Shown here: positions 12,804-64,000 of the stretch, in pieces
Layout of the letters: each line of letters starts with the position of its first letter
How positions within the stretch are numbered: position 1 is the first letter of the stretch
Origin: an uncultured Alphaproteobacteria bacterium
GTDB lineage: Bacteria > Pseudomonadota > Alphaproteobacteria > HIMB59 > GCA-002718135
Assembly: GCA_902593125.1 (NCBI GenBank)
Contig: CACJGU010000003.1
Location: 46,905-110,904, forward strand
Reading direction: 5' to 3'
DNA length: 64,000 nucleotides
The notes under the pieces: generated by a model
Databases searched by the model: none
Told to the model about the DNA's origin: nothing
Seen by the model: only the letters and a program-made list of their open reading frames with translations
Translations under genes and position numbers: made by a program

Positions 12804-12818
12804 TTTAAATATTATATG

Positions 12819-13725: not shown

Positions 13726-13726
13726 T

Positions 13727-14563: not shown

Positions 14564-14564
14564 T

Positions 14565-16730: not shown

Positions 16731-16744
16731 TATTAATAAACATT

Positions 16745-39589: not shown

Positions 39590-39600
39590 TATTAACTCGA

Positions 39601-39633
39601 ACTGACTCATTCAATAATGAGTCAGTTTTTTTT
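39601..39633 (+). terminator. hairpin / attenuating terminator after the SBP gene
   Basis: ACTGACTCATT pairs with AATGAGTCAGT around loop CAAT, followed by T8. Confidence 0.8.
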
Positions 39634-39637
39634 ACTT

Positions 39638-40384: not shown

Positions 40385-40391
40385 TAAAAAT

Positions 40392-41366: not shown

Positions 41367-41368
41367 GA

Positions 41369-42688: not shown

Positions 42689-42761
42689 ATCTTGCTCTAA
42701 ATTTTATAATTATATAATATAAAAATACTTACACTTGTAAGATCGCTCAAAGGAGGATGAA

Positions 42762-47789: not shown

Positions 47790-48890
47790 TTATATTTCTA
47801 TCTTTCTATATTCAGATTTATCTAGCCACTCAGGATTAATTTCAATACCCCAACCAGGGGCATCTTCAATTCTAACCATTCCATTGGATATTTTAAAAGG
47901 ATCACCTAAAAATAAATTTTGTTGCCAAGGATAATAATCTTTACCCTCTATTGAAAATTCAAGGTAAGGACCAGCATTACTTATTGCTTTTAAAAAATGC
48001 ATTGTGCAAATTGTTACTAAAGATAAATTAGCAGTATGTGGAGTGCATATAAAACCACCTTTTTCAATTATTTTAGCAACTTTTAAAGCTTTTGTTAATC
48101 CTCCTAGATACATAACATCTGGCTGAAAAATATTTACAATTTTTCTTTTAACCATATCTCTCCAAATTCTTAAATCGCAATCTTGTTCTCCTCCAGTTAC
48201 ATCTATCTTCAAACTATCAGTGACTTTTTTGGTTTCTTCTGGTTTCCAGTAAGGACAAGGCTCTTCAAAGTGAGTAACATTATTATCTTCTAAAAGTTTA
48301 CCAATTTCTATTGCTTGATCAGAATTATAACAACTATTTGCATCAACCATTTTAATTACACTTTTATCTAAAGATAAATTTATAGTTTTTACTATATCAG
48401 ACGTTCTTCCCTCCCATTCGTCAACTCCTCTACCACATTCAGAACCAACTCTAAATTTAAATGCATTAACGCCCTTTTCATTAAACAGTATATTAAATCT
48501 ATTTGCTTCATCATCAGGTTTAATATCTCTTTTCATTGATGAGCCATAAATTCTTAAATTACCAGGAGATCCTCCTATTAATGAAACTACAGGTTTACCT
48601 TCAATTTTTCCTTTCAAATCCCAAAGGGCAGTATCAAGTCCCGCTAATGCTCTTAAAAGATAGGAGCCAGGGAATTTGTGCTCTCTTTCAAAAACAAAGT
48701 CTGCCAAATCGTCAAAATCGTAGTAAGTTTTTCCCAAAATCCATGGTGCAACTTGTTTGTGAAAAATTTGATTTGTTATATCTGCGTGGTAAGTTGACAT
48801 TTGACCAAATCCAACTGATCCATCTTCAATGGTTACTTTAACAAAGCTAACATAAGATTTTGTAAAAGTTTCAAGTTTAATTATTTTCAT
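47790..48890 (-). CDS. enolase-superfamily enzyme (mandelate racemase/muconate-lactonizing subgroup, probable acid-sugar dehydratase)
   Basis: 366 aa with metal-ligand contexts MVDANSCY, HFEEPCP and TGGEQD. Confidence 0.83.
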   Translation of the reverse strand: MKIIKLETFTKSYVSFVKVTIEDGSVGFGQMSTYHADITNQIFHKQVAPWILGKTYYDFDDLADFVFEREHKFPGSYLLRALAGLDTALWDLKGKIEGKPVVSLIGGSPGNLRIYGSSMKRDIKPDDEANRFNILFNEKGVNAFKFRVGSECGRGVDEWEGRTSDIVKTINLSLDKSVIKMVDANSCYNSDQAIEIGKLLEDNNVTHFEEPCPYWKPEETKKVTDSLKIDVTGGEQDCDLRIWRDMVKRKIVNIFQPDVMYLGGLTKALKVAKIIEKGGFICTPHTANLSLVTICTMHFLKAISNAGPYLEFSIEGKDYYPWQQNLFLGDPFKISNGMVRIEDAPGWGIEINPEWLDKSEYRKIEI

Positions 48891-50508
48891 ATCTTGACTG
48901 TTTTTTTAAATCCTCTGTAATGATTTTACTACCTAAATTAGCAAGCATCATAACAGGCGCATTAATATTTCCAGAGGTAATATTTGGAAACACTGAAGCA
49001 TCTAAAACCCATAAGTTTTTTAACCCATGTACTTTAAATCTCTCAGAAACCACTCCTTTTGATTTATCTTTATCCATTCTGCAAGTTCCACATGGATGAT
49101 AAATAGAAACAGCATTTTCCTTAAAATGTTCAAACATCTCCTCTTCACTTCCATCTATTAGATTATTATTAATATTATCAACTCTTATATCTTTAATAGA
49201 GCTAGTTTTTGCTAATGTATTAGAAAAATTAATGGCACATTTTACATCATAAACATCCTCATCGTTACATAAGAAGTTTGGATTGATAACTGGTTTATCT
49301 TCTACATAAGGACTTGAAAGATTTACTTCACCTAAACTTTTAGGGCGGCATGAATTATATCCTATTATAAAGCCATCAAATTTGTCTGTTTTTAGAAGGG
49401 GTCTTTTATTTTTATGGGTAATAGAATAAGTTATTGGATTAAAATATATTTGCAAATTAGGATATTTATTGCGAGAATTCCAGTTTACGTATCCTCCTGA
49501 TTGATTCAAACTTAAACTAAACGACCCCTTTCTATAAAAAAGATACTTGTATATTTCCTTTATTCTTCCTGACCATGTTCCCAAAGAACTGTTTAATGTG
49601 GGATGAAAAGTTTTAAATAAATAATCTATACCCAAGTGATCTTGAAAATTTTTACCAACATTAACATTATTAATAATTATTTCCTTATTCATTTTTTTTA
49701 AATCTTCGGCATTACCAACACCAGAGTGCATAAGGATAAATGGTGTCATTATTGCACCAGCACATAATATTGTTGCTAAATTAGGTTTTATTATAATTTT
49801 CTTTTTCTTATTAATAATTTCTATAGCTTCAACTTTATTTTCCTTAATTATCAGTTTATTAACAAATGTTTTTGTCATTAATATTAATCTTTTATTTTTT
49901 AAAATTGGTTTTAAGAAAGCTTTAGAAGATGAATATCTTCTACCTTTAAAAGTAGTAATATTATAATGTCCTATTTGATCACTTAATTCAGTATTTAAAT
50001 TTTTATTGAATTTAATACCCATTTCATCACAGCCTCTAAAAAAATATTTTAGAATTGAATGATGTTGATTACTAACATCATTAACAGGCATTTTGTTCAA
50101 ACTTAATGATGAATAACTTGAATCTACCGGTTGTTCAATTTCTTTAAAACTATTAATTATTTTATCTAATGATAATTCAGAGCTCATATGCCAATTTTCA
50201 TAATCTGTTTTCACTCCTCTTGAATAAACCATGCCATTAATTGAACTAGATCCCCCCAAAACTTTACCCCTAGGATAATAAATTTCCCTATTGTTAAGTT
50301 GATTTTGTTTTTCAGAATAGAAATTCCAATTTATTTTTTTATTATAAAACGTCATTCCATAACCCAAAGGAACGTGCACAACAGGACTACTGTCTTTAGG
50401 TCCAGCTTCAATCAAAAGAATTTTATAATTGGTATTATTTATTAATTTATTAGCTAAAATACACCCGGCTGATCCAGCACCTATAATTACTATATCTATA
50501 TTATCCAA
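48877..50508 (-). CDS. GMC-family FAD oxidoreductase (choline/sugar dehydrogenase-like)
   Basis: 543 aa with DIVIIGAGSAGCILANKL and GGSSSINGMVY, plus the C-terminal catalytic-His region HPCGTCRM. The gene's 3' end overlaps the start of the downstream enolase-superfamily gene by 14 nt. Confidence 0.87.
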   Translation of the reverse strand: MDNIDIVIIGAGSAGCILANKLINNTNYKILLIEAGPKDSSPVVHVPLGYGMTFYNKKINWNFYSEKQNQLNNREIYYPRGKVLGGSSSINGMVYSRGVKTDYENWHMSSELSLDKIINSFKEIEQPVDSSYSSLSLNKMPVNDVSNQHHSILKYFFRGCDEMGIKFNKNLNTELSDQIGHYNITTFKGRRYSSSKAFLKPILKNKRLILMTKTFVNKLIIKENKVEAIEIINKKKKIIIKPNLATILCAGAIMTPFILMHSGVGNAEDLKKMNKEIIINNVNVGKNFQDHLGIDYLFKTFHPTLNSSLGTWSGRIKEIYKYLFYRKGSFSLSLNQSGGYVNWNSRNKYPNLQIYFNPITYSITHKNKRPLLKTDKFDGFIIGYNSCRPKSLGEVNLSSPYVEDKPVINPNFLCNDEDVYDVKCAINFSNTLAKTSSIKDIRVDNINNNLIDGSEEEMFEHFKENAVSIYHPCGTCRMDKDKSKGVVSERFKVHGLKNLWVLDASVFPNITSGNINAPVMMLANLGSKIITEDLKKQSRYENN

Positions 50509-50512
50509 ATTA

Positions 50513-51544
50513 TTAGAATGTTTGAGTTATTTTTCTTAAATATCTTGGTTTATCTGGATTTAAATTTTTACTAAAGGAATAATTGATTATCCACGGATAA
50601 AATTTTGTCATAATATATATTGAGTCTAGAATATTAAATATTTTATTAGACTTAAAATAAAAACTTTTATCGTTGTAATTTTTTTTACTTGAAATTAAGT
50701 AGTATAAATTTGTATATTTGATTATTTCTTTAGCATTATTACTAACTATTTGACCAGATTTGTCATTAGTTTGCAGTACAAACAATTTAAACTTTTTTTC
50801 AATAAGTATTTTTGGGCCATGTAAAACCTCTGCACTACTAAATGGCTCTATTAATTCATAACATAATTCTTTGAATTTTAGAGAAATTTCATTTGCTAAA
50901 GCAAGCCCTACACCTCTACTAATAATAAATCCATGATTAACTTTTTTGTTAATTTTATTTTGACTCCATTGATTAATTTTATCTTTTATCAAAAATTCAC
51001 TTAGCTTTAATATTTCATCATTAATATTTTTTTGATTAATTGAATAAAATATTAATTTTATTATTATAGTAATAGTCATTGTAAATGATTTTGTTGCAGC
51101 AATACTTTTTTCCTGACCTGCATAAATATCAAGAAAGAAGTCAGAGTTTTTTAACATTGGGCTATTTTGATTGTTACAAAGAATAATTGTTTTTGCTCCC
51201 ATTTTTCTTACCTGTTTTTCGCACTCAATTAAGTCCTTACCCATTCCAGATTGAGAGATTACTAGTACTAAAGCATGAGAGAAATTAAATTTTGATTTTT
51301 CAATTGTGATGAGTGAAGGAGGCAGTGAATATGTAGGCAATTTACAATATTTAGCAAATAAATAGGATGAAAATAATGCAGCACAATCAGAAGTACCTCT
51401 AGCTATAGTAACAATATATTTAATTTTTTTACTATTTATTAATTTTGCAATAGATTTATAATCGTTTTTATCATTAATAAAAAGATCATTTAATATATAT
51501 GGTATGTCTAGAGCTTCTTTAAGAACTAATGAATTTTTTTTCAA
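50513..51544 (-). CDS. double-SIS-domain amino-sugar-6-phosphate deaminase/isomerase (NagB-II/AgaS/GlmS-C-like)
   Basis: 343 aa with SIS motifs TIARGTSDCAA and VLVISQSGMGKD. It overlaps the nagA 3' end by 26 nt. Confidence 0.78.
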   Translation of the reverse strand: MKKNSLVLKEALDIPYILNDLFINDKNDYKSIAKLINSKKIKYIVTIARGTSDCAALFSSYLFAKYCKLPTYSLPPSLITIEKSKFNFSHALVLVISQSGMGKDLIECEKQVRKMGAKTIILCNNQNSPMLKNSDFFLDIYAGQEKSIAATKSFTMTITIIIKLIFYSINQKNINDEILKLSEFLIKDKINQWSQNKINKKVNHGFIISRGVGLALANEISLKFKELCYELIEPFSSAEVLHGPKILIEKKFKLFVLQTNDKSGQIVSNNAKEIIKYTNLYYLISSKKNYNDKSFYFKSNKIFNILDSIYIMTKFYPWIINYSFSKNLNPDKPRYLRKITQTF

Positions 51545-52610
51545 CTTCTTCTCCTTTTAAATATACATGTTTTATTTTATATTTTTTATCAAGAACAATA
51601 AAATTTGAAAGATAATTCTCTTTTATTTCACCAACATTACTTAGATTTAAAAAATCAGCAGCATTTGAACTTGTCATTGCTATAACTTTATTTAATTTAT
51701 AGCCTAAATTGATTAAATTAATAAATATATCATACATCGTAACAACACTACCTGCTAATGTATTATTATTTTTTAATTTTATAATATTCCCTTTTTTAAC
51801 TATATCATTATTGAATAATTTATATTCTCCATCCTTTAAACCATTAACACTAACTGAGTCTGTTACTGCATAAAGTTTTTTAATTGATTTTTGCGCTATT
51901 TTAATTGCTTCTGGGCTAACATGGAGTTTATCACAAATAATTTCAGCAAAATTCCCATATGCTAAGGCGGCAGATAATACACCAGGATTTCTATGATCAT
52001 TACCTGACATTGCATTGTATAAATGCGTAAAGCTAACATTATATTTATCCATATATTTTTTACAACATTCAGCTGAAGCTAATGAATGACCAAACTGAAT
52101 TGATATTTTTTTTGAATTTATATATTCTATAAAGGACTCCATACCATCAAGTTCAGGTGCTAAAGTTATAGTTTTGACATCAGCAATATTTAATATTTCA
52201 TCCATAAATTTAATTGATGGCTCTTTAGACAAATCAGGTTGCGCGCCTAATTTATTTGGATTTATAAAAGGACCTTCTAAATGAATACCAAAAATATTTC
52301 CCGCCCTATTACTATCTTTTATATTTTCAAGTGCACTCATTGTGTGCTCCAACGTGCTAGTCCAAGTTGAGGGTAATATCGAAGTTGTTCCATGCTCTAA
52401 ATGAAAAAGAGACATTTTATTAATTGCATCATATCCTTGCATAGTATCAGCACCCACAGCTCCATGGCAGTGTGGATCAATAAACCCTGGTATTATTAAA
52501 TCTTCATTATTTTCTTGTTCTTTAGTAATTTTGTTAATTTTATTTGTAAAAGATATAGAGCCAAAGAAAGATTCTTTATTGTTAACTATTTTACCATAAA
52601 TTTTTTTCAT
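51519..52610 (-). CDS. nagA: N-acetylglucosamine-6-phosphate deacetylase
   Basis: 363 aa with PGFIDPHCHGAVG, HLEGPFINP, and the HLYNAMS region. Confidence 0.87.
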   Translation of the reverse strand: MKKIYGKIVNNKESFFGSISFTNKINKITKEQENNEDLIIPGFIDPHCHGAVGADTMQGYDAINKMSLFHLEHGTTSILPSTWTSTLEHTMSALENIKDSNRAGNIFGIHLEGPFINPNKLGAQPDLSKEPSIKFMDEILNIADVKTITLAPELDGMESFIEYINSKKISIQFGHSLASAECCKKYMDKYNVSFTHLYNAMSGNDHRNPGVLSAALAYGNFAEIICDKLHVSPEAIKIAQKSIKKLYAVTDSVSVNGLKDGEYKLFNNDIVKKGNIIKLKNNNTLAGSVVTMYDIFINLINLGYKLNKVIAMTSSNAADFLNLSNVGEIKENYLSNFIVLDKKYKIKHVYLKGEEVEKKFISS

Positions 52611-52614
52611 TTAA

Positions 52615-53538
52615 TTACTTCAAAATTCTTTTATCATTATATAAATTTTCTACAAATTCTTTTTTCTGTGTCATTAAATATGCACCATCTACAGGATTTG
52701 ATTTATTTATATGTACAAACTTTTTAAATTTATTTGGCGTATATTTAAAATAAAAATTAGATAATCCTCCTGATAAATAAATTTTATTTTTTTTTTTAAT
52801 ATTTATTAAGTGATGTAATATGTTTTCATATTCTAAGATTATTTCTTTAAATATTTTTTTTGATAATTCAGATTGATTTAAATATTTTAAAAAAATTTTA
52901 AAAATAGATGCAATTTTTTCTATATCATTTCTCATTAATTTTTTCATAATAGTTAAGTCATTATTACCAAAATTAATGATCAAATCTTTATATATAGGAT
53001 CATTCTTTTCTAAGTTATCTATATTTTTTAAGAAATAAGTTATAATTTTTTTTCCAATCCAATATCCACTGCATTGATCTCCAAACATATGCCCCCAACC
53101 ACCAATTTGATATTGGGTATTTTTGTTTATGAAGAAATGTATGACTGATCCAGTACCAATATTAAAAGAAGCAATGTCTTTATAATTTTTAATTTCAATA
53201 TTTTGTAAAATTGACAAGAGAGATATATGGCCATCAGTTGATATAAAAATTTTTTTATAATTTTTTAGTCTTTTTCTAATAATATTTTTTTTTGATATAT
53301 TTCTTCCCCCTGCTAATCCTAAGCTGATAACAATATTTTTTTTTCTTATATTTTTTAGTATTTTTGATTTTTTTAAATGATAATCTATACAGTCTAAAGA
53401 TAAATTAAAATTATTTTCAATATTACATAAACCTCCCACATTTTTTTCTATCTTATTTCCATTTGTATCAAAAACTGCAGATGTTGATTTTGAAGCACCT
53501 CCATCTAAACAAAAGATATAATGATTTTTTTTAATCAT
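52615..53538 (-). CDS. BadF/BadG/BcrA/BcrD-type ATPase, N-acetylglucosamine kinase-like
   Basis: 307 aa with N-terminal phosphate-1 motif FCLDGGASKST and GTGSV. The protein is extremely K/N/I-rich. Confidence 0.72.
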   Translation of the reverse strand: MIKKNHYIFCLDGGASKSTSAVFDTNGNKIEKNVGGLCNIENNFNLSLDCIDYHLKKSKILKNIRKKNIVISLGLAGGRNISKKNIIRKRLKNYKKIFISTDGHISLLSILQNIEIKNYKDIASFNIGTGSVIHFFINKNTQYQIGGWGHMFGDQCSGYWIGKKIITYFLKNIDNLEKNDPIYKDLIINFGNNDLTIMKKLMRNDIEKIASIFKIFLKYLNQSELSKKIFKEIILEYENILHHLINIKKKNKIYLSGGLSNFYFKYTPNKFKKFVHINKSNPVDGAYLMTQKKEFVENLYNDKRILK

Positions 53539-53559
53539 AATTTAGTATAATCAATAATA

Positions 53560-54237
53560 ATGATTAAAAAAAACAAATTAATCCTAGATAACCTAAAAAA
53601 AGGTTTAGTGGCGTCATGTCAGCCAATTCCTCAAGGTCCCATGGATAAATCATCAATAATTTTAGCAATGGCAAAATCTTCATTGATTGGAGGGGCTAAA
53701 GGTTTGAGGATCGAGGGAGAAAAAAATATCAAATTAATAAAAAAAAATACAAATGTTCCAATTGTTGGCTTGATAAAAAGAAATTTAAGTAATTATCCTG
53801 TAATCATTACACCATTTCTTTCAGATATTGAAAAAATAGCAAATGCGGGTGCGGATATAATAGCATTTGATGCCACAAATAGAAATAGACCTGAAAGCGT
53901 AAAAAGTATTATTAATGAAATAAAAAAATTTAATAAGATTTCAATGGCAGATTGCTCATCTATATTTGATGTTAAAAATGCAATTAAAAGCGATGTCGAT
54001 ATAATTAGTACAACATTATCAGGATATACAAAGAATAAAATTCCTGAATATCCAGATTTTAAATTATTAAGAGAATCTATAAGTTTAAAAATACCGGTGA
54101 TTGCAGAGGGAAGATTCAACACCCCTTATTTGGCTAAAAAAGCAATAAAAATGGGTGCACATTGTGTTGTTGTTGGAACAGCATTAAATAGAGTAGAAAT
54201 AATTACAAATAATTTTGTGAATACTATTAATGAGTAA
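53560..54237 (+). CDS. nanE: N-acetylmannosamine-6-phosphate 2-epimerase
   Basis: 225 aa with GLVASCQP, GLRIEG and VIAEGRFNTP. Confidence 0.85.
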   Translation: MIKKNKLILDNLKKGLVASCQPIPQGPMDKSSIILAMAKSSLIGGAKGLRIEGEKNIKLIKKNTNVPIVGLIKRNLSNYPVIITPFLSDIEKIANAGADIIAFDATNRNRPESVKSIINEIKKFNKISMADCSSIFDVKNAIKSDVDIISTTLSGYTKNKIPEYPDFKLLRESISLKIPVIAEGRFNTPYLAKKAIKMGAHCVVVGTALNRVEIITNNFVNTINE

Positions 54238-55093
54238 AAATTTTGTATCCGTAGATATTGGAGGTACGAAAATATCAGTATGTTTTTTTAAAAAAAATAT
54301 AATCGTAAAGAAAAAAAAGTTTAAAACTGAAAATTTTGGTCCCTCTAACTTGTTAAATATAAGAAATTTTCTTTTGAATAACGTAAATGATATTTCATCT
54401 ATAGGAATAGCTACAACTGGTTTAGTATATAAAAAAAAATGGTCTACTTTGAATAGAAATATGATTGGTAGTTTTGATAATTTTCCAATAGTTAATTTCT
54501 TTAAAGAGAAGTTTAAAATACCAATTTTTGCTATTGGAGATACACACGCCGCATCATTAGGTGAATCATATTATGGGAATGGAAAAGATTTAAAAGATTT
54601 TTTCTATATTACAGTATCAACAGGTATAGGAGGAGCTGCAATTATAAATAAAAAAGTTTTAAATTCGAATAAAAAAATAGTTGGGCAAATCGGACATACT
54701 GTAATTAAATATAATGGGAATATTTGTGGCTGTGGCAGAAAGGGGTGTTTAGAGGCTTATTCTTCAGGTACTGCAATACAAAAAAATATTAATAAAAAGC
54801 TTAAATTAAATCTTAAGTTGAAAGAATTGATTAAAAATCATAGTAAAAATAAGATAGTTATAGATTCTTTAAATAGTGCTGCATCAGTGTTATCAGAAAG
54901 TATAGTAAATATTCATAATATTCTTGGTATAAAAAACTTTATTATTGGGGGGAGTGTAGGATTAAATAATGTATTTTTTAATAAGTTAAATTTTATTATT
55001 AAAGATAAAAATATTAAAATTAAATTAAAAAAAGCAGGTTTGAGACATGATGCTGAAGCTTTTGGTTGTTTAGCTTATTCAAAATATAATTAA
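54230..55093 (+). CDS. nanK: ROK-family sugar kinase (N-acetylmannosamine kinase-like, no HTH domain)
   Basis: 287 aa with VDIGGTKISV and the ROK zinc motif CGCGRKGCLEAY. It overlaps nanE by 8 nt. Confidence 0.75.
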   Translation: MSKNFVSVDIGGTKISVCFFKKNIIVKKKKFKTENFGPSNLLNIRNFLLNNVNDISSIGIATTGLVYKKKWSTLNRNMIGSFDNFPIVNFFKEKFKIPIFAIGDTHAASLGESYYGNGKDLKDFFYITVSTGIGGAAIINKKVLNSNKKIVGQIGHTVIKYNGNICGCGRKGCLEAYSSGTAIQKNINKKLKLNLKLKELIKNHSKNKIVIDSLNSAASVLSESIVNIHNILGIKNFIIGGSVGLNNVFFNKLNFIIKDKNIKIKLKKAGLRHDAEAFGCLAYSKYN

Positions 55094-55096
55094 TTA

Positions 55097-55936
55097 TTAC
55101 TTAACAGCACCTGATGTAATACTCCTAATTAATTGTTTAGAAAAGATAATATAAAAAATTAGTATGGGTATTAAGGCTGTTGATAGCGAAGCAAAAACAG
55201 CATTCCAATTGGTTACGTATTGTCCAATATATTGTTGCATTCCCAAAATTACAGTTTGTTTACCACTTGAAGGAGCAAGAACTAAAGGCCACCATATATC
55301 ATTCCATACTGGTACCATTGTAAAAACTGCAACAGTTGCTAATGGTGGTCTTAGCAATGGTAAGATTATATAAAAAAATAATTGATATTCATTCACTCCA
55401 TCACACCTGGCGGCTTCTTTTAATTCATTGTTAACTTGTTTCATAAATTCAGATAAGATCCAAATAGCCAAAGGCAAACTTTGAGCTGTGTAGACAACAA
55501 TTAGGCCAGTAAGAGTGTTGACCAAACCCATTGAATTAAGAACTTGAAGAACACTTACAGTTCCTAATTTAATTGGCATCATAATTCCAAAAGCAAGATA
55601 CAATCCTAACATCGTATTTCCTTTAAATTTATATTCTGATAATGCCCATGCTGCCATTGCACCAAAAAGAAGAACTAAAAAAAGAGTAATTAAAGTAACA
55701 GTGATTGAATTATAAAAAAATATTCCAAAGTCTACTCTTGAAAACATTTTAGTAAAACCTGTTAAACTAAATGTTTCTTCAGAAGGCAAACTTAAAGGTT
55801 CTTTAAAAATAGCTTTTCTTTTTTTAAATGAATTAGATAATAATAAGTAGACAGGAAACATACATATTAGTGTGTACAATAAAAGAACACTATGCATAAT
55901 TAGTTGATTGATTTTTTCTTGATAAGATCTCATCAA
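55097..55936 (-). CDS. ABC sugar permease (MalG-like)
   Basis: 279 aa with EAA loop LKEAARCDGVNEYQLFFYIILPLLRP. Confidence 0.9.
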   Translation of the reverse strand: MMRSYQEKINQLIMHSVLLLYTLICMFPVYLLLSNSFKKRKAIFKEPLSLPSEETFSLTGFTKMFSRVDFGIFFYNSITVTLITLFLVLLFGAMAAWALSEYKFKGNTMLGLYLAFGIMMPIKLGTVSVLQVLNSMGLVNTLTGLIVVYTAQSLPLAIWILSEFMKQVNNELKEAARCDGVNEYQLFFYIILPLLRPPLATVAVFTMVPVWNDIWWPLVLAPSSGKQTVILGMQQYIGQYVTNWNAVFASLSTALIPILIFYIIFSKQLIRSITSGAVK

Positions 55937-56871
55937 TATTGATACCTTGTTATTCTTTTTTGAAAGGCAAATAAGTAAAGCAATACTCCTATAAGTATAA
56001 TACCAAAAGTGGCTGATGCTACTGTTGCACCCATAGTTGGGTTACCCAATTGATGCTGAAATCCAAAAAAAGTTCTATAAAAAAATGTTCCCATTAAATC
56101 TGTTGAAAATTCAGGTCCCGCATATAAACCTCTAATAGCAAAAATGAGATCAAAGGCATTAAAATTACCGACATATGTTAGTATGACCATTAAGCCAACG
56201 GTAGGCATAATAAGTGGTAACTTAATATACCAAAAAGTAGTAATACCATTAGACCCATCAATTTTTGATGCTTCAAGAACCTCATCAGGAATATTTAATA
56301 ATGCAGCATAAAATAACATCATAGGAATACCAACAAACTGCCAAATTGAAATCAAGGATATCGTAATAAGAGCGGTTTCCTTAAGCCCCAACCAAGGTTG
56401 ATAAAGGTTTTCTAAGCCTACTGCACCAAGCAATGTTTGAGGTATTCCCCAGAGGTTTGATAGTATTAGATTGAAGATGTAGCCAACTATAACAATTGAC
56501 ATCATTGCTGGTAAAAATATTAAGGTTCTATAAGTACCTTTAAATTTTAATTCTTTAGATGACAAAAAAGCTGCTATTAATAAGCCTATAGGTGTTTGAA
56601 TTGAAACGTGTAGTATAAAAAAATATGTATTATTTTTTAGGGCATTCCAAAAATGGTATGACCATAATTCATCGAAAAAAAGTATTCTGTAATTATTAAT
56701 TCCAGTAAATGTTCTGACACCAGTGGTATTATCTAAATTACTTCCCATTAAATCCTGGGTGTAGAAACTTATTCTTAAAGTATCAAATAAAGGAAAAATC
56801 ATAAAAATTGTGTAAATAAAACAGGCTGGAAACAAAAATACAATTATATGGTAGGGAAATTTCTTCTTCAT
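55933..56871 (-). CDS. ABC sugar permease (MalF-like)
   Basis: 312 aa with EAA loop VLEASKIDGSNGITTFWYIKLPLIMP. Confidence 0.9.
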   Translation of the reverse strand: MKKKFPYHIIVFLFPACFIYTIFMIFPLFDTLRISFYTQDLMGSNLDNTTGVRTFTGINNYRILFFDELWSYHFWNALKNNTYFFILHVSIQTPIGLLIAAFLSSKELKFKGTYRTLIFLPAMMSIVIVGYIFNLILSNLWGIPQTLLGAVGLENLYQPWLGLKETALITISLISIWQFVGIPMMLFYAALLNIPDEVLEASKIDGSNGITTFWYIKLPLIMPTVGLMVILTYVGNFNAFDLIFAIRGLYAGPEFSTDLMGTFFYRTFFGFQHQLGNPTMGATVASATFGIILIGVLLYLFAFQKRITRYQY

Positions 56872-56895
56872 TTTTTATATATCAAATAGTTTAAT

Positions 56896-56929
56896 AAAGG
56901 ATCGCGGATAATAAATTCCGCGATCCTTT
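56896..56929 (-). terminator. 13-bp-stem hairpin between the SBP and permease genes
   Basis: AAAGGATCGCGGA pairs with TCCGCGATCCTTT around an 8-nt loop. T/A runs lie on both sides. Confidence 0.65.
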
Positions 56930-56934
56930 TTTTG

Positions 56935-58185
56935 TTACTGATGTGGCTCGTACCAATTAGCTAAGCTAGCTTCAGTTTTTGCCGCACCTTCTTCAGGAGT
57001 CATAGTGCCATTAATAACACTGGATACAACTTCGTAGATCACTCCATCTAAGTTTGGCTCACCTCTTCCAACTATATGACTGCTATTTCTAATAGTAGTG
57101 TCACAAGTATCTTTCCAGCTAATAAATTCTTTAGCAACTGGATCGTTAACATTTATTGAATGAGTATGTAGTGGGAAAAATCCTGGAACTTCATTTGCAA
57201 AAATTTCAGCAAATTCTGCACTAGTTAACCACTCCAAGAAAATTTTAGCTTCCTCTTTATTTGTTGAAGCAGAATTTAGGCCAATACCAATATCGGTGTG
57301 ATCATCAATATAACAATCTGCTTGACCATCTTGTGTATAAGGTGGAAAAGCACTAAATTCAAAATCAGCATTTTGAGAAAATGTAAATATTTCCCAAGAT
57401 CCAGTTGGATAAATTGCTGCCATTCCAAGTGTAAATAAATTTTGACTATCAGGGTAAGTTTGAGTTTGATACCCGTCAGCCATATAGTTACTCCATCTTT
57501 GTAATGATGTTAATAAATCCACATAGTGTTGATCAGTGAATTTTTCATCACCAGTTATGATAGCTTTACGACCTTTCTCACCTGCCCAATAATTAGGTCC
57601 AACATTTTGCCAACCCATAATTGCAGTTGCCCATGTATCTGCTGTGCCAATTGCTAATGGAGTATAATTTCCATCATCTTTGATTTTATCCAAAGTTGCA
57701 AAAAATTCACTTTCAGTTTTTGGAATTGATAATCCAAGTTCTGCAAATATTTCTTTATTGTACATAAATCCATGGGAAACTGATGCCATTGGGACACAGA
57801 ATAAATCAGAACCATCATCTGTACTCCAAGCATCTTTTGCAACTTGAGGATAATTATCTAAACCTCCTAAAGAGTTGAGAGAATCTAACCACCCTCTGTT
57901 AAATAATTTTAACGATTGGTCAAATGGAATACAAGTGATTAAATCTCCAGCAGTTCCACCTTCGAGTTTAGCATTCATGCTACCAGCATATTGAACCGGT
58001 ATAGTTGTTTGAAAAATAACTTCAATATCTGGATATTTAGCATTAAATGCAGGGATTATTGCATTGTTCCATGCATCCGCATCATCATTTCTCCAAGATT
58101 CTATGACTAATTTACCAGCATAAGCTGTATTGAATAGAAAAATAGATGAAATAGATATTAATGTTATAGAAATAAATTTCCTCAT
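56935..58185 (-). CDS. CUT1-type ABC transporter periplasmic sugar-binding protein
   Basis: 416 aa with signal peptide MRKFISITLISISSIFLFNTAYA. The gene is GC-richer than the flanking enzyme genes. Confidence 0.88.
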   Translation of the reverse strand: MRKFISITLISISSIFLFNTAYAGKLVIESWRNDDADAWNNAIIPAFNAKYPDIEVIFQTTIPVQYAGSMNAKLEGGTAGDLITCIPFDQSLKLFNRGWLDSLNSLGGLDNYPQVAKDAWSTDDGSDLFCVPMASVSHGFMYNKEIFAELGLSIPKTESEFFATLDKIKDDGNYTPLAIGTADTWATAIMGWQNVGPNYWAGEKGRKAIITGDEKFTDQHYVDLLTSLQRWSNYMADGYQTQTYPDSQNLFTLGMAAIYPTGSWEIFTFSQNADFEFSAFPPYTQDGQADCYIDDHTDIGIGLNSASTNKEEAKIFLEWLTSAEFAEIFANEVPGFFPLHTHSINVNDPVAKEFISWKDTCDTTIRNSSHIVGRGEPNLDGVIYEVVSSVINGTMTPEEGAAKTEASLANWYEPHQ

Positions 58186-58246
58186 AATAATACTCCTTAC
58201 TATCTTTTAATTTTAAAAGTATGTTATAATAATATTATAATTCTTT

Positions 58247-59287
58247 ATGGGTCAAGCTAATATCTTAAACAAAGATGAAGTACTCAAAAAAATATTTATC
58301 AAACATAAAGCAAAAAATCATATAACTGCAAATTTTGAAATACGGAATAACAGTCATAATAAATTAATAAAATTACCCATAATTTCTATGAAAAATATGG
58401 ATGGACCTGTTGTTCTCCTAATAGGTGCTAATCATGGAGATGAAACTGAAGGCTTCATTTCATTATTTAAATTAATAAAAAATCTAAGATTAGAAGAAAT
58501 TAAGGGTCATTTGATTATAATACCAGCTTTAAACTTACCAGCTTTAAATAATGGCAATAGAGTTTCAATGTTAGATAAAATAGATATGAATAGAAGTTTT
58601 TATAATAATAATAATAATAGTTTAACTTTCAAAATATCAAATTTTTTAAAACAAAGTATTTTACCAAATGTGGAAGTAATTTTAGATATTCATTCTGGAG
58701 GAAAAAATAGAAAGTTTTTAGAAATGGCAAAGTATTATCATTATGAAAATAAATTTCTAATGAAAAAATCTAGAGAAATTGCAATGGCTTTTGGTGCACC
58801 AATATGTTTGAAACATTATGAAAAAAATCCGCATGGCATGCTTGATGTTCTAGCCGTAAAATCTAACAAAATATATGTTAGTGCTGAATTGGGTGGAGGC
58901 GGCTTAGCTAACAAAAAATCTATATCAATCGCAGACAATGGAATAAATAATGTTTTGAAATTTCTTAAAATAATAAAATACGATTTAAAATATATTTCTA
59001 AGATTAAAAAAAGAAAATCAAAACTTTTGTATTTTAATGATGTAAGTAAAAATTTTATATTATCAAAAACGGAAGGAATATTTGAAATAAATGTCAATAT
59101 TGATTCAAAAATTACCAAAGATGATTTGATTGGCACTATTCATTTTCCAGATAATCCTAAAAAAGAGCCAAAGAGAATAATTTCAAAGCTATCAGGTACT
59201 GTAATTGGTATAACAAATAAATCATTTATTAAAAAAGGTGATTTTTTAATTTTAATTGGTGTTATAAAGGAAAAAAATTATGATTAA
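58247..59287 (+). CDS. succinylglutamate desuccinylase/aspartoacylase (AstE/AspA) family zinc deacylase
   Basis: 346 aa with zinc motif LLIGANHGDETEG and DIHSGG. The C-terminal region is a beta-barrel-like tail. Confidence 0.75.
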   Translation: MGQANILNKDEVLKKIFIKHKAKNHITANFEIRNNSHNKLIKLPIISMKNMDGPVVLLIGANHGDETEGFISLFKLIKNLRLEEIKGHLIIIPALNLPALNNGNRVSMLDKIDMNRSFYNNNNNSLTFKISNFLKQSILPNVEVILDIHSGGKNRKFLEMAKYYHYENKFLMKKSREIAMAFGAPICLKHYEKNPHGMLDVLAVKSNKIYVSAELGGGGLANKKSISIADNGINNVLKFLKIIKYDLKYISKIKKRKSKLLYFNDVSKNFILSKTEGIFEINVNIDSKITKDDLIGTIHFPDNPKKEPKRIISKLSGTVIGITNKSFIKKGDFLILIGVIKEKNYD

Positions 59288-60005
59288 GAATAATTATGTT
59301 AAAAAATATATTGCTGAAGTCAAAAAATCTATAGAGCTTATTTCAAAAACACAAGATATAAAATTAAATCAAGCTGTAGAGTTATTTTGTACAACATATT
59401 TTAATAATGGCATGATATATATTTTTGGAACAGGTCATTCACATATGATTGCAGAAGAAGGACATTTTCGTGCTGGTGGATTTGCACCAATATGTCCCAT
59501 TTTGTCATCTAGCACTATGCTTCATGAAAGTGCAACTTTTAGTTCACAAATTGAAAGAACTAAAGGTGTAGCTTCTCAATTGTTAGATAAATATAATTTA
59601 ACATCTAAGGATATTATTATTATTATTTCTAATAGTGGTGTCAATCAAGCACCCATAGAGGCTGCCCTTTACGCGAAAAAAAGGAAAAGTAAAGTAATTG
59701 GAATTTCTTCTTTAAAATATTCCAAAAAAATTAATAAAAACAAAAAATTATATCAATTGTCAGATTTACATATAGATAATTGTGGCCCAAGAGGTGATGC
59801 AATTATATCTGTAAATAAGTATAAAGTTGCGCCATTCTCAACAATTGGTGGAGCCGCAATTATTAATTCAATTATTTCTGAAGTGGCATATAAGCTAAGA
59901 GATGAAAACCCGTTCCCGTTTTATATAAGCTCTAATATGCCAAACTCAAAAGTACATAATGAAAGATTATTTGCAAAATATAGATCTAGAAACCCTCATT
60001 TATAA
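59280..60005 (+). CDS. SIS-domain protein (UPF0309-like)
   Basis: 241 aa with IYIFGTGHSHMIAEEGHFRAGGFAP and IIIISNSGVNQAPIE. It overlaps the deacylase gene by 8 nt and has no HTH. Confidence 0.7.
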   Translation: MIKNNYVKKYIAEVKKSIELISKTQDIKLNQAVELFCTTYFNNGMIYIFGTGHSHMIAEEGHFRAGGFAPICPILSSSTMLHESATFSSQIERTKGVASQLLDKYNLTSKDIIIIISNSGVNQAPIEAALYAKKRKSKVIGISSLKYSKKINKNKKLYQLSDLHIDNCGPRGDAIISVNKYKVAPFSTIGGAAIINSIISEVAYKLRDENPFPFYISSNMPNSKVHNERLFAKYRSRNPHL

Positions 60006-61865
60006 TTAAAATAAATGATGCTTCCAGCCAATTTTTTCAAGCATATTAATAATATTAAATAAACAATTCCTAAAACTATTCCAAGATCTCGAAGACCTAC
60101 CTTTCCATGCTATTTCAGATAATGTTGCTAATCTAGGATTAATCATTTCATCAAAGTATTCTTTGTTAGTAATTGTTTCTGACCATAGTTGAGCTTGAAT
60201 ACCTTTAATCATATTTTTATTATTTATTTTTTCATCTGGTATCCAATGAAATATATCCTTTACTTCTATTGTTGATGCCCAAGATAAGCCCCTTTCTTCA
60301 GTTGAATTATTGTAGGCCATATCAAAATATGTTTTCTCACCTGGGCATAAAATTGTTTCAAAATTTTTACTTGTTATTTCTCTTGCAACATCATTATGCT
60401 CCCATGCAAAAATTAAACATGATCTATCAATGTTTCCAGCACTTCCGCCAACTCCATGATCAATATGTGGAGAGACTGCTGCTTCATTCCAAGCTGCTGT
60501 TCTTTTATTTTTTGATTTAATAATACCGATTAAATAATTCATATAATAATCTTGAAATTCTTCTTGTGAATTAATTTTGTTTTTTCTCATAAACTCAATT
60601 ATTGAGGGTGCTCCTTTCCAAGAATTTTCTGGTCTTTCATCTAATCCTACATGTATGGTATCAAAAGTAAAAATTTCACATATTTCCTCAAATAGATTTT
60701 TTAAGAATTTTTTTGTTTTATCTAATGAGGGATCAATAGTATTATTTTTATAAGATCCAATATCTTCACTAATTATATTTGAATTTTTGTCTCTCAACTC
60801 AGGCATTATTTGCAGCAATGTCCAAGAATGGGCAGGTAAATCAATTTCAGGCATAATTTCTATATTGTACTTTTTTGCATATTTAATTAATTTTTTAACA
60901 TCCTTTTTTTTGTAAAAGCCACCATATTGATTAAAGCCACTACCATAAAACGGAGGTATTTTCATATTATAACCTCTGTATCCTCCAATATCTGTAAGAT
61001 CAGGATATTGTTTTATTTCAATTCTCCAAGCTTCATTATCAGTTAGATGCCAATGAAATCTATTCATTTTAAAGAGAGCCATATAATCAAGCAATTTTTC
61101 AATTTCTTTAATTGAATAAAATTGTCTAACGCAATCTAAATGCATTCCTCTCCAAGTATATTTTGGCGTATCATGAATTTCGCATAAGGGTATTCTGTTT
61201 TCATAATAATAAATAATTTGAATAAGCGTCATTGTTGCATAAAATTTTCCTCCATAATTTTTATAAAAAATTAAAATTTTATTTTTTAAAATTTCTAGAG
61301 AATACTCATCGTCAACTAAATCTTTTTCTAAAAAATAAATTGGAAACCCTTTTGTTTTCATAAATTTTATATTAAGATTTGATATTAATTTTTTAGTATT
61401 TTTAAATATATCTTCGCCATTAATTAATTTGAATTCTCGATTAGTAATATCTGCTAAATCATTTTTAATTAAACATTTCAAAGGTTCCGGTATAATGGGT
61501 ACAAAATTTTTTTCTATTTTCAGATCTTTGTATTTAGGTTTTTTTATTATATTTTCGAATAACAGTTCATTTACGTAAACTTTTTCATGTTCATTTTTTT
61601 TATTAATTAAAAAAACTCCCTCTGGACCACATGACTTATTATAAGAACCTATCTTTGGTACTTGTAAGTTAATTAATATAGTGTGCTTTTTAACTTCAAG
61701 CTCATAATATCTTCCTATTTGTTTTATAATATTTGCACCTTCAATAGATTTTATAGAATAAACTAATGAAAAACATAATTTTAAATTGTTATTCAAAATA
61801 TTTTTACTTAAATCCATTTTTAGTTGGTTTTTTTTTGTAAATGATGGATTTATCTGAAATAACAT
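60006..61865 (-). CDS. GH20 beta-N-acetylhexosaminidase (no signal peptide, likely cytoplasmic)
   Basis: 619 aa with RGMHLDCVRQF, NRFHWHLTDNEAWR and the catalytic pair in HVGLDE. An alternative start, MDLSKN, lies at 61817. Confidence 0.87.
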   Translation of the reverse strand: MLFQINPSFTKKNQLKMDLSKNILNNNLKLCFSLVYSIKSIEGANIIKQIGRYYELEVKKHTILINLQVPKIGSYNKSCGPEGVFLINKKNEHEKVYVNELLFENIIKKPKYKDLKIEKNFVPIIPEPLKCLIKNDLADITNREFKLINGEDIFKNTKKLISNLNIKFMKTKGFPIYFLEKDLVDDEYSLEILKNKILIFYKNYGGKFYATMTLIQIIYYYENRIPLCEIHDTPKYTWRGMHLDCVRQFYSIKEIEKLLDYMALFKMNRFHWHLTDNEAWRIEIKQYPDLTDIGGYRGYNMKIPPFYGSGFNQYGGFYKKKDVKKLIKYAKKYNIEIMPEIDLPAHSWTLLQIMPELRDKNSNIISEDIGSYKNNTIDPSLDKTKKFLKNLFEEICEIFTFDTIHVGLDERPENSWKGAPSIIEFMRKNKINSQEEFQDYYMNYLIGIIKSKNKRTAAWNEAAVSPHIDHGVGGSAGNIDRSCLIFAWEHNDVAREITSKNFETILCPGEKTYFDMAYNNSTEERGLSWASTIEVKDIFHWIPDEKINNKNMIKGIQAQLWSETITNKEYFDEMINPRLATLSEIAWKGRSSRSWNSFRNCLFNIINMLEKIGWKHHLF

Positions 61866-61876
61866 TGATATAAATT

Positions 61877-62944
61877 ATGGGATTTGAAGATATATTTAAA
61901 CATAAACCTCAAATAAAAGAAAGTGCTAATGCACGTGTCAATCTAATTGGAGAGCATACTGATTACACCGGAGGTTATGTTATGCCTACTTTGTTGAATT
62001 TTAAAAATACTGTTGAACTATCAAAAAATGATGAAAAAAAATTTGTTGTATTTTCACAATATTTTAATGAAAAAAAAGTTTTTAATGATTTTATTAAATC
62101 AAAAAATAGTGATTGGTCTGATTATATAAAAGGATGTTTTTTTATTTTTTTTGATGAGAACAAAAAGATCAAATTAGAACATTTTAATATGTATATCAAA
62201 TCCACAATTCCATTAGGACGTGGTATTTCATCTTCATCGGCACTATGTGTATCAATATTAAAAGCATTGAATACATATTTTAATACTCAAATAAATGAAA
62301 AGCATTTGGCTATTTTGGCGAAGAAAGTTGAAAATGAATATATTGGTATCTCTAGTGGTATAATGGATCAAATGGTTTCTTCAATTGGCAGGTATGAAAA
62401 AGCATTTTTTTTAGATTGTCTCAATTTAAAATATGAACTTATAAATTTTCCATCAAATTGGAAATTTTGCCTTATTGATTCTGAGGTACAAAGAAATTTA
62501 CGAAGTAGCTCATACAACGATCGTTTTAATGAATTAAAGATAGCGGAAAAAGAACTTGATGTTGAATATTTAGGTGGAGTTGATTTAAATAAATTTGATT
62601 CAGATAAAATTTCAGATCCAACAGTTATAAAACGAGCAAGACATGTTGTGAGTGAAAACAACAGAGTCTTGAAAGCCAAAGAATGTTTGTTAAAAGATGA
62701 TATCAATCAATTTGGTAAATTAATGATTGAAAGTCATAATTCCTACTCAAAGGATTTTGAAGCATCTACTGCAGATGTTGATGAAATTGTTAAAAGATCA
62801 TTTCAATGTGGAGCTTTAGGAGCAAGATTAACAGGTGGTGGATTTGGAGGTTTTACTGTTTCTCTAATAGAAAAAGAAAAATTTTCAGATTGGTATAAAA
62901 AAATTAATAAATATTACCCTAAAGAAAAAATATTTGAAGTATAA
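61877..62944 (+). CDS. galK: GHMP-family galactokinase-like sugar 1-kinase
   Basis: 355 aa with the galactokinase signature RVNLIGEHTDY, GHMP motif PLGRGISSSSAL, and GGGFGG. Confidence 0.83.
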   Translation: MGFEDIFKHKPQIKESANARVNLIGEHTDYTGGYVMPTLLNFKNTVELSKNDEKKFVVFSQYFNEKKVFNDFIKSKNSDWSDYIKGCFFIFFDENKKIKLEHFNMYIKSTIPLGRGISSSSALCVSILKALNTYFNTQINEKHLAILAKKVENEYIGISSGIMDQMVSSIGRYEKAFFLDCLNLKYELINFPSNWKFCLIDSEVQRNLRSSSYNDRFNELKIAEKELDVEYLGGVDLNKFDSDKISDPTVIKRARHVVSENNRVLKAKECLLKDDINQFGKLMIESHNSYSKDFEASTADVDEIVKRSFQCGALGARLTGGGFGGFTVSLIEKEKFSDWYKKINKYYPKEKIFEV

Positions 62945-62945
62945 G

Positions 62946-64000
62946 TTATTTTAATAGCCTTCTTAATTTACCTTCTGTAGAATCATGATCAATATAACAT
63001 CCTTGTAAATGTCTAAATCCAGTATTCGGATCAAATTTTGATCTTCCGTGTAATGTACGTAAATTATCAAACATAGCAATCATACCTTTAGATAATCTAA
63101 ATTTAATTTTATATTGATCAGAATTACAAAGTTCATACATACATTTTCTAGCTCTATAAAAAGTTTTTAATTTTTCTTGATTTAGAAGCGGGACATAATC
63201 CAATCTTCCACTAAAACTAATTTGCTTAAACTCACCATCATCATCTAGCTCAATAAGTTTGGATTTATTCTCTAATATAACATCAGCATCAGTAAACTTA
63301 AAATTTACATTAGTGTTAGTCAGTATGTGATAAAATTCTTTATTGTTATTTTTTAAATATTCAGCAACACTAAAACCATCAACTAAGCTTGAATCACCCC
63401 CTGTTGATTCATTTGCTATACAATGCAAAAGTTGGATACCAGGTACGGGCTTACGATATGGATTATCAGAATGTGATTTTAATTCTAAAGCAGTATATGC
63501 TAGATCATTAGGATTAGGCTTTGATACAACATTAAATAATTTTCCCCAATTAGTAGTTCGAACAGAACCAATTTTTTCAGCAAAATTTAATACTTCATTT
63601 TCCACGGCTTGCGTATTTTCGATTATTACATATCCATACTCATAGAAAGTTTCTAACATTTGAATTAAGCTTTCCGAATTTTCAAAAATCTTTTTATTAT
63701 TAAATATTTGTAAAGAGTCGTTTTTTTTCCAAATTTTTTTTTTAGGAATAACATCAATAGAATTTATTTCTTGATATAATTCTTCAACACTAATCTTTCC
63801 TTTTACACCATCAGAAAATGTAATACTTAAAAAATTATCTTTAATTGAATAACTTACAATCAATAGGTTTTCATCTAGCAATGAAGGTTCATATAATCTT
63901 TGAAGATTATTAGGATCAACAAATTCATCGCCTGATAGTCTTTCTCTAAGCCATAAACTATGTAAAATAGTACCTTTTAATACCCCTTCTTTTATAATTA
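62946..64000 (-). CDS. gamma-butyrobetaine dioxygenase/TauD-family Fe(II)/2-oxoglutarate dioxygenase (5' end beyond the window)
   Basis: The His-x-Asp context SHSDNPY and the distal His (TLHGRS) are present. The reading frame stays open upstream of the track's TTG start to position 64000 (..IIKEGVLKGTILHSLWLRERLSGDEFVDPNNLQRLYEPS-LLDEN..). HSLWLRE resembles the BBOX N-terminal-domain motif. Confidence 0.75.
   Translation of the reverse strand, partial: IIKEGVLKGTILHSLWLRERLSGDEFVDPNNLQRLYEPSLLDENLLIVSYSIKDNFLSITFSDGVKGKISVEELYQEINSIDVIPKKKIWKKNDSLQIFNNKKIFENSESLIQMLETFYEYGYVIIENTQAVENEVLNFAEKIGSVRTTNWGKLFNVVSKPNPNDLAYTALELKSHSDNPYRKPVPGIQLLHCIANESTGGDSSLVDGFSVAEYLKNNNKEFYHILTNTNVNFKFTDADVILENKSKLIELDDDGEFKQISFSGRLDYVPLLNQEKLKTFYRARKCMYELCNSDQYKIKFRLSKGMIAMFDNLRTLHGRSKFDPNTGFRHLQGCYIDHDSTEGKLRRLLK

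Follow-up and report, generated by a model that had tools for sequence, protein, structure and literature searches.

The closest described counterpart of the gene pair treated here comes from Streptomyces. There, the UPF0309 protein SCO4393, termed NagS (PDB 9eol, 9f7o, 9f7v), was reported in November 2025 to dehydrate N-acetylglucosamine 6-phosphate (GlcNAc-6P) and, more slowly, N-acetylmannosamine 6-phosphate (ManNAc-6P) to 6P-chromogen I, which the deacetylase NagA, by a promiscuous activity, then converts to an enamine/imine (PMC12680351). According to the same study, NagS is inhibited by 6-phosphogluconate and does not bind glucosamine 6-phosphate (GlcN-6P), its residues H53, R64, E94 and D179 are essential by mutagenesis, and among SIS proteins it clusters nearest to MurQ. 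The authors recognise as NagS orthologues proteins of Streptomycetaceae that are at least ~59% identical and encoded divergently from dmdR1; UPF0309 homologues sharing 26-36% identity with NagS showed no activity on GlcNAc-6P (PMC12680351). A literature search under the family names UPF0309 and COG4821 returned no match. In this report, we describe a UPF0309/SIS_2 gene that is likewise paired with a deacylase gene in an amino-sugar context, in a 64,000-nucleotide stretch of contig CACJGU010000003.1 (assembly GCA_902593125.1) from an uncultured alphaproteobacterium; this whole stretch is called the window below. The SIS protein likely shares the chemistry of NagS, though not necessarily its substrate. 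Its partner is a neofunctionalised DoeB-like deacylase, found beside the SIS gene in a single clade.

Three further systems bear on the comparison. MurQ is a SIS enzyme that carries out enolisation at C2 and beta-elimination at C3 of a 2-acetamido sugar 6-phosphate. The murQ-murR-murP-amiE-nagZ operon of B. subtilis has a logic that the window shares, namely an eliminase, an amidase, an exo-beta-N-acetylglucosaminidase and a transporter. However, the amidase and glycosidase of the window are of other families, and we found no evidence pointing to N-acetylmuramic acid (MurNAc). DoeB/EutE, which deacetylates N-alpha-acetyl-L-2,4-diaminobutyrate in ectoine catabolism (PDB 6twl, 6twm; TIGR02994), shares with the window deacylase a two-domain fold, the zinc ligands, the catalytic Glu and the Asn-Arg pair, and is its closest sequence relative with a solved structure. 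Finally, marine chitin use offers, in the pathway for oxidised chitin, a case in which a GH20 enzyme (OngA) stands beside a deacetylase of amino-acid deacylase lineage (OngB) that has come to accept an acid derived from a sugar (PMC9537276; PMC12017989). OngB has the (beta/alpha)8 fold of the D-aminoacylases, whereas the window deacylase has the AstE/AspA fold; the ong pathway includes no SIS protein, and there is no OngC, OngD or KdgK among the window open reading frames (ORFs) that were scanned.

In the window, the deacylase and SIS genes overlap by 8 nucleotides (ATGATTAA; all feature coordinates are given in Table 1), suggesting translational coupling. The arrangement recurs in seven other loci (L001, where the overlap is 14 nucleotides, L013 and L093-L097). 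The ratio of nonsynonymous to synonymous substitution rates (dN/dS) is 0.16-0.21 for the deacylase gene, out to a synonymous divergence (dS) of ~1, which indicates purifying selection; for the SIS gene it is 0.09-0.13 over the same range, with one value of 0.28 at low dS. Because the arrangement recurs in seven loci and dN/dS is low, both ORFs are true genes rather than chance ORFs. Downstream, the SIS stop codon ends at 60005 and that of the convergent GH20 gene starts at 60006, leaving no gap. Upstream, a spacer of 61 nucleotides, counted to the start codon of a solute-binding protein (SBP), separates the pair from the divergent operon of an importer. This spacer is nearly invariant across seven loci, although the synonymous divergence of the flanking genes reaches ~1. 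It contains a TATAAT-rich, palindrome-like element, AATAATATTAT(T/A), that may be an operator or a set of overlapping -10 boxes. Promoter-like sites were not enriched (20, against 18.8 expected by chance from shuffles), and the same scan found no terminator. We infer a promoter function for the spacer; the case for co-transcription of the two genes is their geometry. This layout had already been set out in a preliminary description of the locus, along with the HGDETEG zinc motif of the deacylase, the GTGHSHMIAEEGHFRAGG motif of the SIS protein and its lack of a helix-turn-helix (HTH) domain, both family assignments (AstE/AspA and UPF0309), a NagA gene ~6 kb away and an amino-sugar setting. All of these stand, the setting comprising genes for NagB-II, NagA, a BadF-type kinase, NanE, NanK, a CUT1 importer, GH20 and a GalK-like protein.

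The SIS protein matches NF002805/PRK02947 at 253.1 bits (cutoff 135), its residues 6-241 aligning with profile positions 3-246 of 247. The motif GTGHSHMIAEEGHFRAGG occupies residues 50-67, and the domain scan matched no HTH family. Its closest solved structure, PDB 3cvj (2e-38, 36.6% identity), is a “putative phosphoheptose isomerase” of B. halodurans from structural genomics, a relative with no assigned function that carries no substrate information. NagS itself, deposited as “UPF0309 protein SCO4393” (PDB 9eol), is matched at 9e-22 with 30.6% identity. In the HMMER alignment to 9eol, residues H53, R64, S91, E94, D179 and N228 of NagS and its phosphate-binding serines S54, S119 and S121 are all kept (H53, S54, R64, S89, E92, S117, S119, D173 and N219 in window numbering), and these residues are invariant across 22 SIS relatives. 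Because the catalytic residues are kept while homologues at 26-36% identity are inactive on GlcNAc-6P, we regard a chemistry shared with NagS as likely, though not necessarily a shared substrate. The window protein falls outside NagS orthology as its authors delimit it: the identity is 30.6%, the host is a SAR11-like alphaproteobacterium, and the neighbours encode an SBP and GH20, with no dmdR1-type iron-regulator gene among those annotated. Further, whereas NagS has a role in signalling and toxicity, the window protein is encoded inside a catabolic island beside an importer.

These results revise two statements of the preliminary description. The UPF0309 group was said there to have no assigned function, which the characterisation of NagS (PDB 9eol) as a GlcNAc-6P dehydratase has made outdated (PMC12680351). 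The SIS protein was also proposed to be an isomerase or deaminase; a dehydratase or beta-eliminase of the NagS/MurQ type is more likely. Orthology to MurQ itself was considered and rejected, the MurQ models TIGR00274 (17.4 bits, cutoff 302) and NF003915 (20.1 bits, cutoff 168) aligning with residues 90-149 alone. The SIS protein was likewise rejected as a paralogue of NagB-II: it has a single SIS_2 domain, in contrast to the two SIS domains of the NF046059 type, and a BLASTP comparison with the island NagB-II aligned the generic phosphate loop alone (E = 0.007). The same comparisons bear on the idea that the deacylase acts directly on an N-acetylhexosamine (HexNAc) or its 6-phosphate in place of NagA, after which the SIS protein would perform a NagB-like isomerisation/deamination. 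Such a scheme would suit the amino-sugar island, and SIS proteins do include the GlcN-6P deaminase NagB-II. We nevertheless consider it very improbable, given that the window protein is of the NagS family and not of the GlmS/NagB-II type, that NagS did not bind GlcN-6P (PMC12680351), that NagA and NagB-II are both kept in the island in every deacylase-clade locus long enough to show them, and that the pair is not conserved beyond one clade.

The membership of the deacylase in the AstE/AspA superfamily is clear from its match to PF24827 (119.7 bits, cutoff 25; residues 53-239), within which HGDETEG forms residues 63-69. Its zinc ligands (H63, E66 and H149), R105, the pair N115-R116 and E214 are all kept and are invariant in an alignment of 35 sequences; we take the zinc triad, the catalytic Glu, the Arg and the Asn-Arg pair to have the roles of their homologues in ASPA and carboxypeptidase A. 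An AlphaFold2 model (predicted local distance difference test score 91.4, predicted template modelling (TM) score 0.90) has the two-domain fold and was matched by Foldseek to the product-bound EutE/DoeB structure 6twm with E = 1.2e-38 and TM scores of 0.86/0.91; the sequence alone finds 6twm at 4.7e-47.

The preliminary description had allowed that the deacylase might turn out to be a DoeB enzyme of an amino-acid pathway. It is no orthologue of DoeB. On TIGR02994, the equivalog model for DoeB (cutoff 402.7 bits), the window protein scores 217.9 and its own clade 198-214, against 357-421 for the nearest relatives and 461-583 for proteins named DoeB by NCBI. When residues were compared across 7 sequences of the clade, 19 of near relatives and 7 of DoeB, nine positions proved invariant in all 26 outgroup sequences and replaced in the window clade (Y67T, P70F, N113D, P119Y, H164Y, E204V, H239F, Y311I and R322I). 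In addition, the DoeB-conserved Asp156 has become Lys (D156K), beside L155R. The changes D156K, L155R and E204V amount to a shift from acid to base that fits an anionic rather than a cationic substrate, at positions that would lie in the ligand pocket as judged from group-wise conservation. By analogy with carboxypeptidase A, we assume that the seventh residue after the histidine (His+7) lines the S1' pocket, which on this reading would have gone from acidic, suited to the ammonium group of 2,4-diaminobutyrate (DABA), to basic. The genomic context also differs from that of DoeB. No EutD/DoeA-type (Creatinase_N/M24) gene adjoins the deacylase gene, whose neighbours encode the SBP, the SIS protein and GH20 in a setting of sugar rather than ectoine use; a juxtaposed EutD/DoeA gene is the criterion of Mais et al. 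for DoeB/EutE, as quoted in PMC8739950. We conclude that the deacylase is a neofunctionalised DoeB-like enzyme and not DoeB. Recent transfer from a GC-rich donor was considered and set aside, the gene having 24% G+C within a window of 29% G+C.

How far is the pair conserved? One genome per species was scanned with an alignment of SIS relatives; 329 UPF0309 loci were confirmed, and the best 80 of the 329 were kept for neighbour counts, in which their six-frame ORFs were searched with the proteins of the window and of other loci. Just 1 of the 80 has an AstE-like gene next to the SIS gene, namely L013, from the window's own lineage. Within this narrow clade, by contrast, the deacylase gene adjoins the SIS gene in 8/8 loci, overlapping its start codon in all, and every one of them has the SBP gene, the divergent deacylase-SIS unit and then the convergent GH20 gene. 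From the side of the deacylase, a search of 5.8 billion proteins returned six clusters at >=69% identity and next matches at <=41%, and a metagenome scan gave five more loci. Seven contexts of the nearest relatives (31-41% identity) contain neither a SIS nor a nag gene; their amino-acid-type genes include Creatinase_N/M24, PALP and Cys_Met_Meta_PP enzymes, gamma-glutamyltranspeptidase and M19, and one of the loci (L010) has a DoeA/DoeB-like pair of M24 and AstE genes. An apparent independent co-occurrence in Mesorhizobium (L084) was rejected: the AstE-like gene there lies ~6 kb upstream of the SIS gene, grouped with an amino-acid-type ABC (ATP-binding cassette) permease and Amidohydro_3, and two GntR genes and an FGGY kinase gene stand between it and the SIS unit.

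The SIS gene, in contrast, is a conserved member of HexNAc islands in Pelagibacteraceae, SAR116 and HIMB59. In Pelagibacteraceae and SAR116 it is divergent from the same SBP operon, with no deacylase gene and a spacer of ~120-150 nucleotides; in HIMB59-type loci it heads a SIS-NagA-NagB-II-GMC-MR_MLE operon. The deacylase gene is a lineage-specific addition between the promoter region and the SIS gene, made in one clade only, and the pair constitutes no general module. The conservation of the two genes as neighbours, to which the preliminary description had looked as a check, is thus borne out in the clade itself (8/8 loci) and fails elsewhere (1/80 UPF0309 loci, 0/7 contexts of deacylase relatives).

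This distribution raises the possibility that the deacylase has nothing to do with sugars and is a diverged N-acyl-amino-acid deacylase, acting on an N-acetyl-DABA-like substrate or an acidic N-acetyl amino acid, that rides on the divergent promoter. The contexts of all seven nearest relatives are of the amino-acid type, 79 of the 80 species-level UPF0309 loci lack the pair, and the residues of the carboxylate clamp are kept. But the overlap with the SIS start codon has been maintained in 8/8 loci through a dS of ~1, the replacement of nine subfamily-invariant residues and the halved DoeB score argue for a new substrate, and no M24 partner of the DoeA/EutD type adjoins. A lasting, coupled insertion in the catabolic island of a streamlined genome would also be explained more simply by a function in that island. 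We therefore judge this explanation unlikely.

Our favoured reading, to which we give a probability of roughly 0.35, is that the deacylase is an accessory enzyme of this one lineage, which partners the NagS-like protein and removes the N-acyl group of an anionic intermediate derived from HexNAc. The SIS enzyme would open a sugar of the HexNAc-6-phosphate type, enolise C2 and eliminate the C3 substituent (OH or an ether), as in the chemistry of NagS and MurQ, and would thereby yield or consume a 2-acetamido-2-ene intermediate of the 6P-chromogen-I type. The co-translated deacylase would then strip the N-acyl group from this anionic, sugar-derived intermediate or its immediate precursor. Labour would be divided as between NagS and NagA in Streptomyces, except that the second step would fall to a dedicated enzyme of another fold, AstE/AspA, and the canonical NagA/NagB-II route would continue in parallel. 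The family and conserved catalytic residues of the SIS protein, the precedent of NagS and NagA, the island context, the overlap in 8/8 loci and the remodelling of the deacylase suggest this function, which is read from sequence.

Several observations weigh against this proposal. The pair N115-R116, which we take to clamp the substrate carboxylate in the AstE/AspA superfamily, is strictly kept, yet 6P-chromogen I has no carboxylate. At 30.6% identity to NagS, the window SIS protein falls among the UPF0309 homologues (26-36%) that are inactive on GlcNAc-6P. The island encodes NagA, which suffices for the second step in Streptomyces. Most UPF0309 loci have no deacylase gene (a GntR/UTRA regulator is present in 45/80 and an FGGY kinase in 34/80); because such loci are the majority elsewhere, the family in general needs no deacylase. 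Finally, the toxicity of the NagS/NagA product in Streptomyces makes it harder to see a role in catabolism.

The conserved carboxylate clamp leads to a different explanation, in which the deacylase would pre-process an amino-sugar derivative that bears a carboxylate. In one version, it would be an amidase of the MurNAc-L-Ala type that frees MurNAc, which the BadF-type kinase would phosphorylate and the SIS protein, as a MurQ-like etherase, would convert to GlcNAc-6P, making the locus analogous, but not homologous, to the murQ-amiE-nagZ recycling operon of B. subtilis. In the other, it would deacetylate a 2-acetamido-2-deoxy-aldonate (GlcNAc1A, its 6-phosphate or the dehydrated enamide) derived from oxidised chitobiose by GH20, or through the GMC and MR_MLE proteins of the island, in analogy to OngA/OngB. 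The strict retention of N115-R116, R105, the zinc ligands and E214 is in keeping with either version, and D156K and L155R would suit a tail that is anionic or a polyol. The island has a GMC oxidoreductase and an enolase-superfamily protein among its conserved members, a BadF-type kinase gene adjoins the SIS gene in relatives, OngA is itself a GH20 enzyme, OngB deacetylates GlcNAc1A and was recruited from amino-acid deacylases (PMC9537276; PMC12017989), and NagS is nearest to MurQ among SIS proteins (PMC12680351). On the other hand, the SIS protein reaches only 17-20 bits on the MurQ models (cutoffs 302 and 168), and among the larger window ORFs scanned, several at 1824-24793 having been left out, no Pfam match suggested MurQ, D-lactate use, a 2-keto-3-deoxygluconate (KDG) kinase, a 2-keto-3-deoxy-6-phosphogluconate (KDPG) aldolase or an OngC-like deaminase. 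GlcNAc1A has the D configuration at C2, whereas the substrates known for the superfamily are of the L configuration. Further, relatives without the deacylase nonetheless have the GMC, MR_MLE, GH20 and SIS genes, and the NanE, NanK and GalK-like genes are left unexplained. We consider this explanation possible but doubtful. One observation touches its peptidoglycan version: in L009 (4133-10470), a relative of the deacylase with 40% identity is encoded ~4 kb from a gene of the exo-beta-N-acetylmuramidase family NamZ, which may be a coincidence.

A bolder form of the dehydration chemistry is that the SIS protein and the remodelled deacylase make up a dehydrate-then-deacetylate route that bypasses both NagA and NagB. 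HexNAc-6P would be dehydrated to a 2-acetamido-2-ene sugar phosphate, the deacetylation of which would give an enamine and then an imine that hydrolyses spontaneously to a 2-keto-3-deoxy sugar phosphate and ammonia; the GMC oxidoreductase of the island could possibly oxidise this product towards KDPG. We think such a route quite unlikely. The preliminary description had likewise seen in the pair an alternative to the NagA route and a candidate for an undescribed two-step module. With NagA and NagB-II both still encoded in the island, a simple bypass of NagA is unlikely, and a UPF0309 enzyme followed by a deacetylase, NagS then NagA, has already been described (PMC12680351).

UPF0309 genes also occur in other settings. 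The usual layout in Chloroflexota, Inquilinus and Rhizobiales (L021-L092) is GntR/UTRA-SIS-SBP-permease-permease-FGGY kinase, as in L030 (4344-10057) and L084 (9279-14918). This order resembles that of frlR/frlBONMD in B. subtilis, and by analogy the UPF0309 proteins encoded in such loci may process another imported sugar derivative. The amide hydrolases encoded next to SIS genes are NagA (14/80 loci), GATase1_like (4/80) and ceramidase-like proteins (2/80). A general rule of a SIS protein with any amidohydrolase was rejected, the majority GntR/UTRA-to-FGGY layout having no amidohydrolase. GATase1_like (PF07090) follows SIS-ROK in four Chloroflexota loci (L028, L030, L034 and L045), and the neutral-ceramidase-like gene stands beside UPF0309 in L050 (11171-13012) and L091. 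In some Pelagibacteraceae loci (L002-L005, L020 and L022), an additional UPF0309 paralogue with 44-46% identity to the window protein is encoded between the BadF kinase and GH20 genes, accompanied by another CUT1 importer and by a GFO_IDH_MocA oxidoreductase (for example, L002 11788-16744).

Table 1. The deacylase-SIS pair and the surrounding amino-sugar genes, in window coordinates
Feature	Position	Strand	Remarks
Enolase-superfamily MR_MLE protein	47790-48890	-	PDB 3t8q (function unassigned), 2e-157
GMC oxidoreductase	48877-50508	-	
NagB-II	50513-51544	-	
NagA	51519-52610	-	~6 kb from the pair
BadF/BadG-type HexNAc kinase	52615-53538	-	
NanE	53560-54237	+	
ROK NanK-like kinase	54230-55093	+	
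Two ABC permease genes	55933-56871 and 55097-55936	-	
CUT1 SBP, divergent importer operon	56935-58185	-	
Divergent spacer, SBP operon to deacylase-SIS unit	58186-58246	.	61 nucleotides up to the SBP start codon
Deacylase ORF	58247-59287	+	346 amino acids; Pfam PF24827 AstE_AspA_cat, 1.4e-34
Start/stop overlap ATGATTAA	59280-59287	+	8 nucleotides
SIS ORF	59280-60005	+	241 amino acids; Pfam PF13580 SIS_2, 1.9e-40; NF002805/PRK02947
GH20 exo-beta-N-acetylglucosaminidase, convergent	60006-61865	-	Best PDB match Nag2, 6ezr, 6.6e-76
GHMP galactokinase-like (GalK-like) kinase	61877-62944	+	Kept beside GH20 in relatives

The genes of Table 1 form an island for the uptake and catabolism of chitobiose/HexNAc in a SAR11-like alphaproteobacterium of 29% G+C (28.7% in the window). 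The nearest genome locus, L013, comes from the single-cell genome “uncultured Alphaproteobacteria AG-893-O06” and encodes island proteins that are 90-100% identical to those of the window; relatives annotated as Pelagibacteraceae, SAR116 and HIMB59 come next. The SBP is weakly similar to chitin-oligosaccharide binding proteins, among others. A literature search on the use of GlcNAc, chitobiose or amino sugars by SAR11/Pelagibacter found nothing about this island. The importer (SBP and two permeases, 55097-58185) is 78-88% identical among the window lineage, Pelagibacteraceae metagenome-assembled genomes and SAR116 single-amplified genomes (L002-L008, L014, L016-L020 and L022), whereas the identity of NagA and NagB-II from these islands is just 47-62%. 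With a dN/dS of 0.00-0.03 for the SBP and one permease, this conservation points to extreme constraint or to transfer of the transporter between clades.

The MR_MLE and GMC genes end the nagB-II operon in all surveyed SAR11-/HIMB59-type loci that reach that far, a hint of an oxidative, acid-sugar branch in the island; a literature search on 3T8Q, 3U4F, 3TCS and 3T9P for the function of the MR_MLE protein returned unrelated papers only. The deacylase-bearing lineage also differs from its relatives in gene order. Its BadF-type kinase gene has been relocated from beside the SIS gene to a place between NagA and NanE (52615-55093; compare L006 5180-6731 and 10755-11672), and the orientation of NanE and NanK is opposite to that in other Pelagibacteraceae islands. 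At 62944-63881, the window lineage is missing the genes for an aldehyde dehydrogenase and a Creatinase_N/M24 protein, which relatives carry between their GalK-like and TauD/BBOX-like genes (compare L006 14740-18481), and its TauD-like ORF is ~50 amino acids shorter. Two further sugar-uptake clusters lie at 11478-17905 and 38594-43841. One comprises a CUT1 importer followed by a protein of 721 amino acids, whose N-terminal domain is an ADP-ribosylglycohydrolase, and by an MFS transporter; the other has a ribose-type ABC system, a GH4 glycosidase and a MalK-like ATPase.

Amino sugars derived from chitin and peptidoglycan make up a large reservoir of carbon and nitrogen in seawater, and no potential consumer of it is as numerous as the SAR11-type bacteria. 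Together with NagA and NagB-II, a NagS-family enzyme is a fixed component of the HexNAc islands in SAR11, SAR116 and HIMB59-type bacteria, whereas the sole published study of UPF0309 function limits bona fide NagS to Streptomycetaceae, where it serves as a toxicity gate (PMC12680351). Because the family is fixed in these islands, outside that view, the canonical marine GlcNAc pathway may be short of a step or a substrate. The deacylase, for its part, is a clean natural case of an amino-acid deacylase re-tooled within a sugar island; its pairing with the SIS protein is confined to a small clade and so is not a widespread new module. If the dehydrate-then-deacetylate route were true, a chemistry so far described only for toxicity and signalling in Streptomyces would serve productive catabolism and deamination in abundant marine oligotrophs, and UPF0309 enzymes would supply a core step that has been missing from HexNAc use by SAR11, SAR116 and HIMB59.

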